From: Pseudomonadota bacterium
GTDB taxonomy: Bacteria > Pseudomonadota > Alphaproteobacteria > Rhizobiales > Beijerinckiaceae
Direction: 5' to 3'
Length of the DNA stretch: 64,000 nt
Assembly (NCBI GenBank): GCA_020161575.1
Contig: JAIUNR010000008.1
Span: 29,195 to 93,194 of the forward strand
In this document: positions 41,819-47,976 of the stretch, in pieces
Numbering within the stretch: position 1 is the first letter of the stretch
How the letters are laid out: the number at the start of each line of letters is the position of its first letter
Notes under the pieces: generated by a model
What the model saw: only the letters and a program-made list of their open reading frames with translations
Database searches by the model: none
Told to the model about the DNA's origin: nothing
Translations under genes and position numbers: made by a program

Positions 41819-42961
41819 TCAGCCTGGCCTGAAACCATGGGTCATGCTGCGCCATAGCCATTCGAACGGGCCGAATGCGTGCCGCCTTAGCCAGAGAAGG
41901 CTGGCGACGGCGAAGAGCGCGTAGATGCCTGATCCAATCAGGATTCCCGTGCTTGTACTGATCCTGCCCATCAGACCGAGGCCATAGCCATAGAACAGGA
42001 ATCCGAGGACGAGCGAATAGAGCAGGTAGTTCGTGAAAGCCATGCGCCCGACCGCGCTGGACCAGCCAAGGAAAGGCCGCACGTGGTGCTGCCGGGCAAG
42101 CCAGGCGAAGAGCGCCGCATAGCCCAGCGCCACCAGCATGGAGCCGAGCGTGGCGTTGGCGAGCGCGCCGATTTTGCCGGGAAGAAGACAAAGCGCAAAA
42201 CCGGCGGCTGTCAGAAGCAATCCCGCCAGCGCCACGCGTCGATCGGGGTGCGTGAAGAGGCGCGCCGCGCCCAGACGCCAGAGCACGGCGCCGAGCAGCA
42301 GGGTCGCGAGCGTGCGCGGAAGCTGGTAAAGGTGGAGCGGACCGAAGCGCAGGATTTCATCGATCCTGAACGACAGAACCGTGAGGTAATCGCCTCGGCC
42401 ATATGCCGCCGCGGCCGCGTCGACATGGGCGGAAAGCGCGTCAAGGGGCGGCAGCCGGAAGGGCCGGAAAACCATCGGCAGCAGGATATAGAGCGCCAGG
42501 CAGGCGCATAGCGCGACGATCAGACCTCGCAGGCGCAGATGCAGCATTGGAACGAAAAGCAGGCCCGCAAGCGCGTATTCCGTCAGGATGTCGCCGTTCC
42601 AGAGCAGGAACAGGTGAACAAGCCCGAAAACGAGCAGGGCGAGCATGCGGCGATAGAGCATGCCGGTCCCCCTGCCGCGGGCGGCGAGGGAGTCGAACTG
42701 CATGGCCAGGCCGAAGCCGAGCAGCATGGTGAAAAGCATCAGGGTCTTGATGTGGATCGCGCCGAACAGCACCATACGGATGGCTTGATCCAGCCCCGAT
42801 CCCGCGCCCGGCCTTATCCAATGCTCGAAGGCGGGAACGCGGAACATCATTTCCAGATTGGCCAGCAGGACACCGAACAGGGCTGCGCCACGCAGCATGT
42901 CGAGCGTCTCGATGCGCGTTCGGGTGCCCGAAGCGGAAACGGGGGCGGTGCGATCTGTCAT
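41819..42961 (-). CDS. DUF418 (YeiB-like) integral membrane protein
   Basis: RIETLDMLRGAALFGVLLAN, LFTMLLGFG, RRMLALLVFGLVHL...WNGDIL, VGRMAFTNYL, GPFEWLWRSMT. Confidence 0.88.
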   Translation of the reverse strand: MTDRTAPVSASGTRTRIETLDMLRGAALFGVLLANLEMMFRVPAFEHWIRPGAGSGLDQAIRMVLFGAIHIKTLMLFTMLLGFGLAMQFDSLAARGRGTGMLYRRMLALLVFGLVHLFLLWNGDILTEYALAGLLFVPMLHLRLRGLIVALCACLALYILLPMVFRPFRLPPLDALSAHVDAAAAAYGRGDYLTVLSFRIDEILRFGPLHLYQLPRTLATLLLGAVLWRLGAARLFTHPDRRVALAGLLLTAAGFALCLLPGKIGALANATLGSMLVALGYAALFAWLARQHHVRPFLGWSSAVGRMAFTNYLLYSLVLGFLFYGYGLGLMGRISTSTGILIGSGIYALFAVASLLWLRRHAFGPFEWLWRSMTHGFRPG

Positions 42962-43100: not shown

Positions 43101-45266
43101 TTACCGGCCGGACGCTGCTCCCGGCGCGGATGCCGAAGTTGCGCGGAATCCTGCGGAATTCGCTGGCTGCAACCGAATGACGCGATCGGTCGCGGCCAGC
43201 GTCGAGGTGCGATGCGCGATCACGATCCGCGTCATGGGCAGGGCACGCACGGCCCTGTTGATCATGGCCTCGTTCTCGGGATCGAGATGACTGGTCGCCT
43301 CGTCGAGCAGCAGGATCGCGGGGCGGCGGTAGAGCGCGCGCGCGAGCACGATGCGCTGGCGCTGGCCACCCGAAAGAGAGCTGCCCATATCGCCCACCAG
43401 GGTTTCGTATCCCATCGGCATCGTGAGGATTTCGTCGTGAATCGCGGCGAGGCGGGCACAGCCGGTGAGATGTTCGATATCCGGCTCAGGATCGAAGGCG
43501 CAGATATTATCGGCGATCGAGCCGGCGAACAGACGGTCATCCTGCAGGACGCAGCCGATCCGGCGACGGTAAGCCGACATGGTCAGGGAGGAGACCGGGA
43601 CATTGTCGACCAGAACCTGTCCCTCGCTCGGCTGGGCGAGACCCGCGAGGATCTTGAGCAAGGTCGTCTTGCCTGCTCCTGACGGGCCGGCAATGCCGAC
43701 GCATTCGCCCGGCCTCACGTCAAAACTGAGATTGCTCAGGATATCGGGCTCGTTATCCGCATAACGGAAGCGGATGGCCCGCACGGAGAGGCTGGCAGCG
43801 CCACCGGATTTCCAGCCGGCGATGGGATTGTCCTGGCCTCCTTCGCTCCCTTCTGGCTCGGCAAGCGCGATATCGGCAATACGCTCGCCATGGAGGGAGA
43901 GCATCATGAATTGCTGCGCGGCATCGACGAGGCTGTTCATGCGCTGCGCGAACTGATCCTTGTAGGCCAGGAAGGCGATGAAGACGCCGACGGAGAAATC
44001 GGCTGCCACGACGCCGCGAATACCGAGATAGATGAGCAGGATCCGGTCGAGCCCGAAAATGACCTGTCCGGCGGCGTCGATGCCGGCATCGAGCTTGCCG
44101 ACCCGCATCTGCGCATTGATGTGCTCGACCAGATGATTGATCCATGCGCCGCGGCGGCGCTCCTCAAGGTTGAGCACCTTGACGCTCGCGATGCCGCGCG
44201 CGGTTTCCATGAAATGGGTTTGCTGAAGCGCGGCGTGGACGATCGCATCCTCGGATTTCGCGCGATACAGCAGATGTGTCGCAACGCGAATGCCGATGAA
44301 CAGCGAAACGCTGACAAGCGGGATGATGACCAGCCACCCCCCATAAAACGCCATCATGCCGAGGAGGGCGATGGACATGACGCCATCGAGCAGCGCGCTG
44401 ATCGTGCTCGAGGTCAGGGTCTGCCTTGCGGTATCGAGCGAGCCGAACCGGGATACGACATCACCGACATGCCGCCTTTCGAAAAAGCCCATCGGCAGGC
44501 GGAGCAGATGATCGAACAGCGCGACTTTCCATTGCAGGACCAGGCTGCTGCCGAATTTGAGGGTGGCCCAGCTTCGCACAAGCGTCGCGGCGACCTGAAG
44601 AAAGAGAAGCACGGCGAGGCTGAGCGCGATCAGGGTCAGCAGATCGAGATCCGCGGCGACCACGACCTCGTCGAGCGCGATCTGGAACCCGATCGGCATG
44701 GCGATGATCGCAAGCTCGATCAGCAGGGAAATCGCGAGCACCTGAACGAGCGTGGGGGTGATGCCGCGCGTGCGGCGAATGAGATCGAAAAAGCCGATCC
44801 CGGTCCGCTCATCCTTCTGCTCGAAGGTGCTGGTGGGCCAGGCTTCAAGCGCGACGCCGGTGAAGCGGCGCGACACCTCGTCGAGCTTCACCACTTTCCG
44901 GCCCACGGCAGGATCATGGATCACGACCTCGCGCGCGCGTACTTCCGTGAGGACGACGAAATGATTGTGATTCCAGTGCAGGATGCACGGAAGGCGGAGC
45001 CCCGCGAGATCGCCGATATCAAGGCGCACGGCGCGTGTCGCGAGTTTCAGCTCCGCGCCCAGCCGGACGAGATCGCGCAGGGTCATGCCCTTGAGCGAGG
45101 CGTTGAAGCGCCGCCTGAGGCCGGGCAGATCCAGCGCATGGCCGTGACGTCCCGCGATCATCGCGAGGCAGGCGAGGCCGCATTCCGCGGCTTCGCTCTG
45201 GCGTATGACCGGCGTATCGGCGAAAAGGCCGCCGGTAATGCGCCGGGCGAGATCAGCGCCGGTCAC
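43101..45266 (-). CDS. Peptidase-containing ABC transporter (C39 PCAT; CvaB/RaxB-like)
   Basis: QSEAAECGLACL (catalytic Cys), LPCILHWNHNHFVVL (His), TM domain, [26 protein letters not shown]; GTG start with GGAG RBS. Confidence 0.95.
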   Translation of the reverse strand: MTGADLARRITGGLFADTPVIRQSEAAECGLACLAMIAGRHGHALDLPGLRRRFNASLKGMTLRDLVRLGAELKLATRAVRLDIGDLAGLRLPCILHWNHNHFVVLTEVRAREVVIHDPAVGRKVVKLDEVSRRFTGVALEAWPTSTFEQKDERTGIGFFDLIRRTRGITPTLVQVLAISLLIELAIIAMPIGFQIALDEVVVAADLDLLTLIALSLAVLLFLQVAATLVRSWATLKFGSSLVLQWKVALFDHLLRLPMGFFERRHVGDVVSRFGSLDTARQTLTSSTISALLDGVMSIALLGMMAFYGGWLVIIPLVSVSLFIGIRVATHLLYRAKSEDAIVHAALQQTHFMETARGIASVKVLNLEERRRGAWINHLVEHINAQMRVGKLDAGIDAAGQVIFGLDRILLIYLGIRGVVAADFSVGVFIAFLAYKDQFAQRMNSLVDAAQQFMMLSLHGERIADIALAEPEGSEGGQDNPIAGWKSGGAASLSVRAIRFRYADNEPDILSNLSFDVRPGECVGIAGPSGAGKTTLLKILAGLAQPSEGQVLVDNVPVSSLTMSAYRRRIGCVLQDDRLFAGSIADNICAFDPEPDIEHLTGCARLAAIHDEILTMPMGYETLVGDMGSSLSGGQRQRIVLARALYRRPAILLLDEATSHLDPENEAMINRAVRALPMTRIVIAHRTSTLAATDRVIRLQPANSAGFRATSASAPGAASGR

Positions 45267-46651: not shown

Positions 46652-46849
46652 TCAGAGGCTGATTCCGTTGCGGTAGTCCCAGCGGACAATCGAAGCGCCC
46701 TGCGAATTGGTGCAGCGGGTGACGGTCACATTCGGCTTCACGGTCACGGTGCAGGTCCAGGTCTGGCCGGCGCCGCCAGCCACCAGGTCCAGCGCGTTCA
46801 TATCCAGTTCCTGGATCGCGCCGTCGGCGAAAGAGGTGTTGTTGGTCAT
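46652..46849 (-). CDS. Double-glycine leader precursor peptide B (26-aa leader + 39-aa core, 2 Cys)
   Basis: ELDMNALDLVAGG|AGQTWTCTVTVKPNVTVTRCTNSQGASIVRWDYRNGISL; L(-12), L(-7), V(-4), GG; GGAG RBS; directly upstream of the HlyD/PCAT genes. Confidence 0.85.
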   Translation of the reverse strand: MTNNTSFADGAIQELDMNALDLVAGGAGQTWTCTVTVKPNVTVTRCTNSQGASIVRWDYRNGISL

Positions 46850-46992
46850 TTCGTTTTCTCCAGTTTTTGGGGGGCTGTGCAGGTCTCGCCGCCCGGCCCG
46901 GAGACAACGCCTCCTGCGATCGCGGCAAGTTCAGCCTCCGTCAGGAGGTAAACGCCCAGGCTCTCGGCCTTGTCGTTGGGATGATCGGTCAA
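46846..46992 (-). CDS. Double-glycine leader precursor peptide A (probable TTG start; 28-aa leader + 20-aa core)
   Basis: GGAG RBS 7 nt before TTG; LLTEAELAAIAGG|VVSGPGGETCTAPQKLEKTK; its stop overlaps the ATG of peptide B. Confidence 0.7.
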   Translation of the reverse strand: MTDHPNDKAESLGVYLLTEAELAAIAGGVVSGPGGETCTAPQKLEKTK

Positions 46993-47351
46993 TGCTCTTC
47001 TCCATTCCGGGCGCCGGTTCTCCGGCACCATGCGGCAACCAGCGAATCCGAAATGGCCCGCTGGAGCACACGATTCCCCGGTAGAGAAAAGCGTTCCCCG
47101 GAGGAACTAGTGCAAATCGACTAGTGCGCCGCCGGAGGAGGAAAGCTCCCTGAATTCAAAGGGGTTTACGAAGCAACTAAGTCATCTGTACTAGCCGAGG
47201 CGGGTAATGAACCAGCCACGACCTGCGATCGCTCACCTGTGCTAATCGATCCCGGGGGCAGAGTTTCTTATGAATCGGGACGGATCTGCCCTCCGTTGGT
47301 CATTTTTCTCGGAGGATTGGGTTCCTGAATAACAAGAATGGGAGAGAAAAA

Positions 47352-47579
47352 ATGAAACATTCCAACATCATCGCGCTGACCGAGAACGACCTTGATGCCG
47401 TCAGCGGCGGCACGCTGACCTTCGGCAATGGCACCACTGGAGGGTATGGCTCCAACGGCGCTTTCGCGCGCGGCTCCGCGAGCTGGACGAACAGCAGCGG
47501 CTCGTTCTCCACCAGCGTATCGTTCAACTTCGATGGTGGCAGCGGCTTCAACAAGGTCTCCTTTACCTGGAGGTTCTGA
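47352..47579 (+). CDS. Double-glycine leader precursor peptide C (20-aa leader + 55-aa Gly/Ser/Phe-rich core)
   Basis: MKHSNIIALTENDLDAVSGG|TLTFGNGTTGGYGSNGAFARGSASWTNSSGSFSTSVSFNFDGGSGFNKVSFTWRF; GGAGAG RBS; own terminator. Confidence 0.87.
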   Translation: MKHSNIIALTENDLDAVSGGTLTFGNGTTGGYGSNGAFARGSASWTNSSGSFSTSVSFNFDGGSGFNKVSFTWRF

Positions 47580-47623
47580 TTTTAGCAGGGCTTCCCGCCC
47601 CGCGATTCCTGCCTTTGCCTGCG

Positions 47624-47658
47624 AACCACGCATCCCATGCGATGCGTGGTTTTTTCTT
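47624..47658 (+). terminator. Intrinsic terminator of peptide C
   Basis: AACCACGCATC-CCATGC-GATGCGTGGTT, a perfect 11-bp stem followed by TTTTCTT. Confidence 0.82.
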
Positions 47659-47976
47659 GCGGGGACCTTGCCGGCCGCGCGCTGTGGCGTTCTGATGATG
47701 GCGGAACCTTTTTCTTTGCGTTCCCGCTCAGCAGAGACAAGGATAGTTTGTAGCAAAACTAATCGTAAATCCTGGCGGCACGCACCCGGAACAAGGTATC
47801 TATTCTGATTCCGTACTTGCATCGGGAAGAGCGTTGGAGGAAAGGTAGCGCCGTAAACAGGCTCGCCTTTCCTGCCTTCTCCCGCATTTCGACACCGGAT
47901 GCTTCAGGGCATGGTCGCAGAAGGCCTGAAGACGAACAACCGGCCTTCCGGTCGGTAATCCGGCAGGGGAACCGAG

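Follow-up and report, generated by a model that had tools for sequence, protein, structure and literature searches.

The window, by which we mean the whole stretch of 64,000 nucleotides that was analysed, encodes a 75-aa precursor peptide beside a double-glycine peptide exporter. Judged from its sequence, this peptide, called here peptide C, is an orphan and adds a new member to the class II microcin-like peptides; its predicted features are best explained by a peptide of the class II microcin type that is made ribosomally and left unmodified. Tentatively, we read peptide C as a toxin that would act from outside on BamA through mimicry of the beta-signal of outer-membrane proteins (OMPs). BamA is one of the few essential and surface-exposed targets of Gram-negative bacteria, and its known natural inhibitors are the cross-linked RiPP darobactin, the lectin-like bacteriocins (Llps) of 25-30 kDa and the bacteroidetocins. 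To our knowledge, no class II microcin-like peptide has been characterised from the Alphaproteobacteria.

The peptide C gene and the adjoining exporter

The gene of peptide C is separated by a divergent spacer from an operon that encodes two further peptides and the exporter. The features of this region of the window are the following:

47340-47346, + strand: ribosome-binding site of peptide C (GGGAGAG), 5 nt ahead of its ATG, read from the letters
47352-47579, + strand: peptide C ORF, 75 aa by translation, consisting of MKHSNIIALTENDLDAVSGG and TLTFGNGTTGGYGSNGAFARGSASWTNSSGSFSTSVSFNFDGGSGFNKVSFTWRF
47352-47411, + strand: double-glycine leader MKHSNIIALTENDLDAVSGG, 20 aa, compared with the consensus L(-12)xxxE/D(-8)L(-7)xxI/V(-4)xGG
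47623-47658, + strand: intrinsic terminator of peptide C, an inverted repeat with a 12-bp stem, a 6-nt loop and a T tract
47032-47351, no strand: divergent spacer between the A/B-exporter operon and peptide C, 320 bp, 54% G+C
46846-47031, - strand: peptide A, double-glycine precursor with the core VVSGPGGETCTAPQKLEKTK; homologues in L015 and L016
46652-46849, - strand: peptide B, double-glycine precursor whose core has two Cys; homologues in L016 (61% identity) and, with weaker similarity, in L019
45253-46554, - strand: HlyD-family membrane-fusion adaptor (Pfam HlyD_3, TIGR01843)
43101-45266, - strand: peptidase-containing ABC transporter, PCAT (Peptidase_C39 2e-35, ABC_membrane and ABC_tran domains; TIGR03796/TIGR01193-like)

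These signals indicate that peptide C is a real gene, equipped with its own ribosome-binding site and terminator. The leader (LTENDLDAVSGG) carries L at -12, D at -8, L at -7, V at -4 and G at -2 and -1, so that every defining position of the consensus is occupied as expected, and the leaders of peptides A and B can be aligned with it. Because the gene has an intrinsic terminator of its own, peptide C would constitute a one-gene transcription unit. No sigma-70-like site was found in the spacer 47032-47351, and the Rfam search recognised no RNA family there. The spacer contains a direct repeat, ACTAGTGC-N6-ACTAGTGC, at 47106-47127, which might be the operator site of a common regulator.

The search for relatives returned peptide C itself only, both from the word-indexed search of 5.8 billion protein clusters and from an exhaustive phmmer search of 1.84 billion representatives. 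No homologue above chance level was detected by six-frame search in 61 related genomes, a two-sequence profile gave nothing above chance-level matches in 400 genomes from the order, a profile run on the cluster database recovered the two input peptides only, and the PDB sequence search and Pfam provided neither a relative nor a family. The same 75-aa protein with the same neighbours occurs on one Logan contig and on one JGI metagenome contig; both copies are 100% identical in DNA, and thus carry no evolutionary information on peptide C. One weak look-alike was found in Brucella daejeonensis (L015:8723-8935), a 70-aa ORF with a double-glycine leader and a core of 55 residues that adjoins a homologue of peptide A. 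The similarity between the two cores beats 99.3% of shuffles (p about 0.007) and, if they are related, they would have in common an FGxG motif, a D-G turn and a Trp located two residues before the end of peptide C.

An ORF that is a total orphan among these 5.8 billion clusters and 1.84 billion representatives, and whose other copies have identical DNA so that they give no evidence of purifying selection, might be a young, strain-specific reading frame that is unexpressed or functionless. We consider this very improbable given the perfect leader consensus, the strong ribosome-binding site, the terminator and the matching intact exporter that the ORF adjoins. The codon statistics point in the same direction: GC3 reaches 0.82 in the ORF (the window has 65% G+C), and a codon-usage model trained on the genome gave a clearly positive score, corresponding to host-like codons, in the frame of peptide C only.

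On the strand opposite to peptide C, the genes follow in the order peptides A and B, HlyD adaptor and PCAT. The C39 domain of the PCAT retains its Cys (ECGLAC), His (NHFVVL) and Asp (HDP), and genes for TolC-type channels are present at other places in the genome. It is near-certain, as a prediction from the locus, that peptide C is made as a 75-aa precursor of the substrate type cut after Gly-Gly by the adjoining C39-ABC transporter; export of a basic, beta-prone peptide of 55 aa and 5.7 kDa after cleavage at Gly20 is predicted with the same near-certainty. The transporter, the HlyD adaptor and a chromosomal TolC-type channel would deliver the core directly to the cell exterior. No RiPP maturase gene was found between 41.8 and 47.9 kb, and no radical-SAM gene in the neighbourhood. 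The genes located beyond peptide C (ArgG-like, amidase, thioesterase, NRPS-PKS) belong to a separate cluster.

The closest transporters, with 50-69% identity, are found in Brucella, Rhizobium, Ensifer, a Hyphomicrobiales MAG and Halomonas, and these scattered hosts suggest a mobile cassette. Homologues of peptides A and B lie beside homologous HlyD and PCAT genes in a Hyphomicrobiales MAG, in Rhizobium sp. HT1-10 and in Brucella daejeonensis; the coordinates of the homologues, to be compared with 46652-47031 of the window, are L016:4223-4620, L019:4291-4449 and L015:8995-9108. As judged from these homologues, peptides A and B are a conserved pair. Since the related loci contain homologues of A and B and none of peptide C, the latter would be a strain-specific addition to a conserved A/B-exporter cassette.

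We also looked for an immunity gene. Neither strand of 47032-47351 or of 47580-47976 contains a small membrane-like ORF. The sole membrane protein encoded nearby is a polytopic DUF418 protein (41819-42961, - strand), whose gene is located 139 bp downstream of the PCAT gene on the same strand. Its role as a conserved immunity gene is not supported, as it is absent from every related PCAT locus; it could be a chance neighbour, or it might confer protection at this locus only, for peptide C alone.

Composition and predicted strands of the mature core

Cleavage after the double glycine would release a core in which the following segments were distinguished:

47412-47576, + strand: predicted mature core, 55 aa, 5,675 Da, pI about 10, GRAVY -0.28, no Cys, no Pro
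47502-47531, + strand: predicted penultimate strand SFSTSVSFNF, aa 51-60, with the faces F-T-V-F-F and S-S-S-S-N
47532-47546, + strand: predicted turn DGGSG, aa 61-65, of which D61-G62 is common to the Brucella daejeonensis look-alike
47547-47576, + strand: predicted last strand FNKVSFTWRF, aa 66-75, with the beta-signal-like tail K-V-S-F-T-W-R-F

The sequence-only reading had described the core as rich in Gly, Ser, Asn, Thr and aromatic residues, free of Cys and endowed with a single acidic residue, and it had singled out the strings GSASWTN, SFSTSVSFNF and KVSFTWRF. The residue counts bear out this description and the three strings are all present in the translation. The core comprises 11 G, 11 S, 8 F, 7 T and 5 N (G, S, T and N make up 62%), with 11 aromatic residues, three basic ones and one acidic residue, D61. 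No window of the core is hydrophobic enough for a membrane helix, the highest 19-residue Kyte-Doolittle mean being 0.03. The core contrasts in this with the Gly/Leu-rich cargo that is common beside the PCATs of the same order.

The core had also been likened to outer-membrane strands, and the analysis supports this likeness. Its composition is more OMP-like than that of 99.98% of the non-OMP 55-mers of this genome, and it contains two non-overlapping, strongly dyad-amphipathic 10-residue windows (aa 52-61 and 66-75), a feature reproduced by 3% of composition-preserving shuffles. The segment SFSTSVSFNF has the highest 180-degree hydrophobic moment of peptide C and forms a strand in one low-confidence AF2 model. 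Clear amphipathicity is confined to the last 25 residues; the N-terminal 30 residues are Gly-rich and have a low beta moment. The AF2 models themselves are unreliable, with pLDDT values of 41 (two-row alignment) and 46 (core alone) and a strand placement that differs between them.

The sequence-only reading had offered three different functional guesses, namely that peptide C jams or hijacks BAM, forms a barrel pore or forms amyloid. A peptide of this kind could insert into the outer membrane by itself, several copies forming a small barrel or disordering the membrane, and would then kill directly or help peptides A and B through, with or without a need for BAM. The OMP-like composition, the two 10-residue dyad-amphipathic strands with their tight turn, the aromatic residues placed as in the girdles of OMPs and the fact that peptide C is encoded together with two further cargo peptides of one exporter are in line with such an action. 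We nevertheless regard it as rather unlikely, because the amphipathic part is restricted to the last 25 residues and the monomer models are unreliable, because BAM inserts its substrates from the periplasm, which this export route bypasses, and because perforation of the outer membrane by itself rarely kills. Moreover, peptides A and B are found without peptide C in the related loci.

Amyloid-prone segments typically have such a low complexity of Gly, Ser, Asn, Thr and aromatic residues, and amyloid formation is established for microcin E492. Peptide C might accordingly be no toxin and serve as an exported amyloid- or matrix-forming peptide, or as a signal; for the latter, the sub-threshold NCBIfam matches, which lie mainly over the leader, include a weak one to a peptide pheromone model (E 0.02, far below the cut-off). 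However, no sensor kinase or regulator is encoded nearby, a core of 55 aa is long for a pheromone, and the core has no repeats and the locus no machinery of the Fap or curli type. A tail that is specific to OMPs would furthermore be left without explanation, and we give this non-toxin reading little credence.

The C-terminal tail and the OMP beta-signal

The Omp25/31-type proteins (PF13505) of the genome encoding peptide C end in RAG[IL]NY[KR]F, and its BamA (contig C6:220047-222497) ends in GGARF. For 22 further genomes of the genus 25 tails were readable, of which 23 end in [YW][KR]F, one of these being AGLSWKF, and genome and genus together define the Omp25/31-type pattern G-[VLI]-[NS]-[YW]-[KR]-F. 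Peptide C terminates in S-F-T-W-R-F, its last five residues being hydrophobic, small polar, Trp, basic and Phe. A C-terminal [FWY][KR]F is present in only four of the 2,708 crude gene calls of the genome (74 of them have a terminal F), and these are three Omp25/31-like OMPs and peptide C. Likewise, the ending aromatic-x-aromatic-x-F-COOH was observed twice among the 2,708, in peptide C and in a 614-aa protein terminating in GSTFRFGF. Composition-preserving shuffles produced the [FWY][KR]F tail in 0.15% of cases (p 0.0015) and aromatic-x-aromatic-x-aromatic in 0.6%; peptide C had been chosen for its tail, so a look-elsewhere effect applies to these values. The 614-aa protein (C4:52224-54068, - strand) may be an outer-membrane protein.

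The cargo of other exporters was sampled twice: 80 PCAT loci of all phyla gave 43 candidate double-glycine cores, and 56 PCAT loci within the order gave 35 of high confidence. None of the 43 and none of the 35 cores, coming from these 136 other exporter loci, ends in [FWY][KR]F or in aromatic-x-aromatic-x-aromatic. Across the 78 cores, the OMP-like tail does not recur at the level of a family of PCAT cargo.

The general beta-signal consensus has been formulated as zeta-x-G-x-x-[aromatic/hydrophobic]-x-[aromatic/hydrophobic]-COOH (bioRxiv 10.64898/2026.09.25.754295). Peptide C fits three of its four defined positions, the Gly being replaced by Ser. Counting from the end, where F75 is the last residue, the third, fifth and seventh positions are W73, F71 and V69, all of them aromatic or hydrophobic as they should be, and the eighth, K68, is polar as in the consensus; the sixth is S70 instead of Gly, in a part of the tail where the OMPs of the genus have R-[AF]-G. 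The penultimate R74 matches the Lys or Arg typical of the genus, and these two residues are the commonest at the penultimate position of OMP tails, exceeding 60% in a few alphaproteobacteria (PMC3582582). With an exact-letter weight matrix derived from the genus tails, peptide C ranks only 34th of the 2,708 gene calls. What matches is thus the class of the residues at the last five positions, and the R-A-G part is not included. The sequence-only reading had called the terminus beta-signal-like; this can be retained for the last five residues, with the basic penultimate residue and the terminal Phe, but not for the sixth position, which is Ser, nor at the level of exact letters, where the rank is low.

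The look-alike of Brucella daejeonensis ends in ...RYDWK and has no terminal Phe, and the OMPs of its host end in YKF. Since homologues are absent, conservation of the tail cannot be shown. The origin of peptide C from an OMP gene was considered and rejected, the search of its own genome having yielded only weak Gly-rich matches in a 1,150-aa ORF (E 0.16).

Possible action on BamA and comparison with known systems

The reading that we tentatively prefer is that peptide C is an antibacterial toxin directed against relatives of its producer, which would kill without entering the cell. The Gly-rich N-terminal half would dock on the target surface, and the C-terminal hairpin would reach into the open barrel of BamA. 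Its last strand, with the pattern F71-x-W73-x-F75 and an R74 that recalls the OMP tails of the genus, could then pair with strand 1 of BamA in the polarity of a substrate's last strand, which is indeed the polarity of a tail entering from outside. Occupation of the beta-signal site would block the assembly of OMPs. The absence of an immunity gene beside peptide C fits a surface target, as for the lectin-like bacteriocins and the bacteroidetocins. Somewhat more doubtful is the narrower proposal that peptide C reproduces the last hairpin of an OMP as a free-standing molecule, exported by means of a bacteriocin leader, which would kill related alphaproteobacteria from outside by placing its F-x-W-R-F tail on strand 1 of BamA.

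Several observations count against an action on BAM. The sole possible relative has the same core length and no terminal Phe, the Gly of the beta-signal is Ser in peptide C, and the exact-letter rank is 34th of 2,708. The Llps known so far depend on a lectin domain for locating BamA, whereas peptide C has none according to Pfam. In addition, the OMP tails of the producer itself, and so presumably the site on its own BamA, are of the type that is imitated, and the model does not account for how the producer would protect itself.

Also tentative, and nearly as likely as the inhibition of BAM, is an ordinary bacteriocin resembling the class II microcins that has some other target. Such a peptide would bind an outer-membrane receptor, enter the periplasm and then attack an inner-membrane protein or a periplasmic beta-rich protein; thanatin acts on LptA by strand addition. 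The OMP-like tail would be due to chance, or would serve in receptor binding or uptake only. The leader, the exporter and the size of peptide C are all class II microcin-like, the only look-alike does not share the tail, and the look-elsewhere effect weakens the argument from the tail. This reading also follows the pattern of the characterised class II microcins, which all use receptors (CirA, FhuA, OmpF), have targets beyond the outer membrane and carry their uptake domain in the C-terminal part (PMC12219008). On the other hand, the core lacks a hydrophobic segment for helix insertion, and no immunity gene of the kind carried by inner-membrane-acting microcins adjoins it. Finally, the class-level match with OMP tails is rare (p 0.0015; 0 of 78 peers), being found otherwise only in OMPs of the proteome.

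The class II microcins (MccV, MccL, MccN, MccPDI and the set of PMC12219008) resemble peptide C in their Gram-negative producers, in being unmodified peptides of less than 10 kDa with a Gly/Ser-rich core, and in their 15-20-aa double-glycine leader and adjoining PCAT and HlyD-type adaptor using TolC. Peptide C differs from them in having no sequence relative, no adjoining immunity gene and no hydrophobic helix; it is alphaproteobacterial, its tail would copy the OMP beta-signal, and it is known from sequence alone. Microcin E492, of class IIb, is likewise a Gly/Ser-rich secreted microcin, but its Ser-rich siderophore-carrying tail and its hydrophobic pore part are both absent from peptide C, and no siderophore-attachment genes are located nearby.

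The bacteroidetocins have leaders cleaved at Gly-Gly and mature forms of 42-53 residues, they target BamA, and their producers lack immunity and are sensitive to them (PMC8546649). Like Bd-A to Bd-D (PMC8546649), peptide C has a double-glycine leader, a similar size (55 residues) and a Gram-negative producer with Gram-negative targets presumed, and surface BamA, their target, is the one proposed for it. The bacteroidetocins come from another phylum, are class IIa-like, and resistance to them maps to the external loop 3 of BamA; they have no sequence similarity to peptide C in the phmmer search of 1.84 billion representatives. The portion of the PMC8546649 text that was consulted does not mention a beta-signal for them.

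The lectin-like bacteriocins of Pseudomonas kill without entry, their C-terminal peptide being located in the BamA lumen and pairing with strand 1 (bioRxiv 10.64898/2026.09.25.754295; PMC13463100). The inhibitory motif that binds strand 1 of BamA is [aromatic/hydrophobic]-x-[aromatic/hydrophobic]-x-[aromatic/His] (bioRxiv 10.64898/2026.09.25.754295), and F71-T-W73-R-F75 of peptide C (F-x-W-x-F-COOH) has this form. LlpA-C16 ends in W-x-W-x-F-COOH, and removal of its last two residues abolished the activity (bioRxiv 10.64898/2026.09.25.754295; PMC13463100). LlpA/LlpB and the L-type pyocins have further traits in common with peptide C: they are ribosomal and unmodified, they possess an amphipathic C-terminal strand with an aromatic dyad and a cap, and they have no immunity gene. 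External action without entry is established for the Llps and would apply to peptide C under the BAM reading. In contrast to peptide C, the Llps are proteins of 25-30 kDa whose lectin domains bind loop 6 of BamA; they use another export route and are known only from Pseudomonas and its relatives. Pfam found no monocot mannose-binding lectin domain in the 75 aa of peptide C, which is far too short to contain one.

Darobactin and dynobactin are also peptides that mimic the beta-signal on strand 1 of BamA and have an aromatic end (W-N-W-S-K-S-F in darobactin). They differ from peptide C, which has 55 residues and is presumably unmodified, in being RiPPs of 7-10 residues cross-linked by radical-SAM enzymes (DarE).

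If the BAM reading is true, peptide C would be the first beta-signal mimic among unmodified peptides of the class II microcin type, and would extend the BAM-directed bacteriocins for the first time beyond Pseudomonas and Bacteroidota. It would act on BAM without a lectin domain or cross-links, with a tail tuned to the OMP signal of the target genus; a leader-exported linear peptide carrying that signal would be a new variation on the known BAM-directed antibacterials. Its linear scaffold of 55 residues would be far simpler, and accessible by synthesis or through any microcin secretion chassis. A genus-tuned tail would give a handle on the species specificity of beta-signal recognition and on the way in which a peptide without lectin domain finds BamA. 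If the idea fails, peptide C would provide a calibrated example of an OMP-like tail on a secreted peptide that is statistically rare yet non-functional.

Other double-glycine peptides were observed beside related exporters. The Brucella daejeonensis locus (L015:2558-9108) contains six ORFs with double-glycine leaders around one PCAT/HlyD pair, and the ORF at L015:8563-8712 ends in ...SQARF, which resembles the own-genome BamA tail GGARF. Beside the PCATs of at least six genomes of the order we noted a Gly/Leu-rich double-glycine family, LSLGLDLDLSSELGAVSG...VGGLVGGLLGAVGG (L167:10441-10650, L169:9841-10335, L173:4930-5163, L174:10268-10465, L185:5970-6158, L187:5970-6158), whose members are probably membrane-active, microcin-like peptides of wide distribution. 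Two genomes of the order carry arrays of 3-6 paralogous double-glycine peptides beside PCATs (L146:9949-12716, L156:13387-14440), with Ser/Thr/Gly-rich cores of the GDPVPYPDV type.
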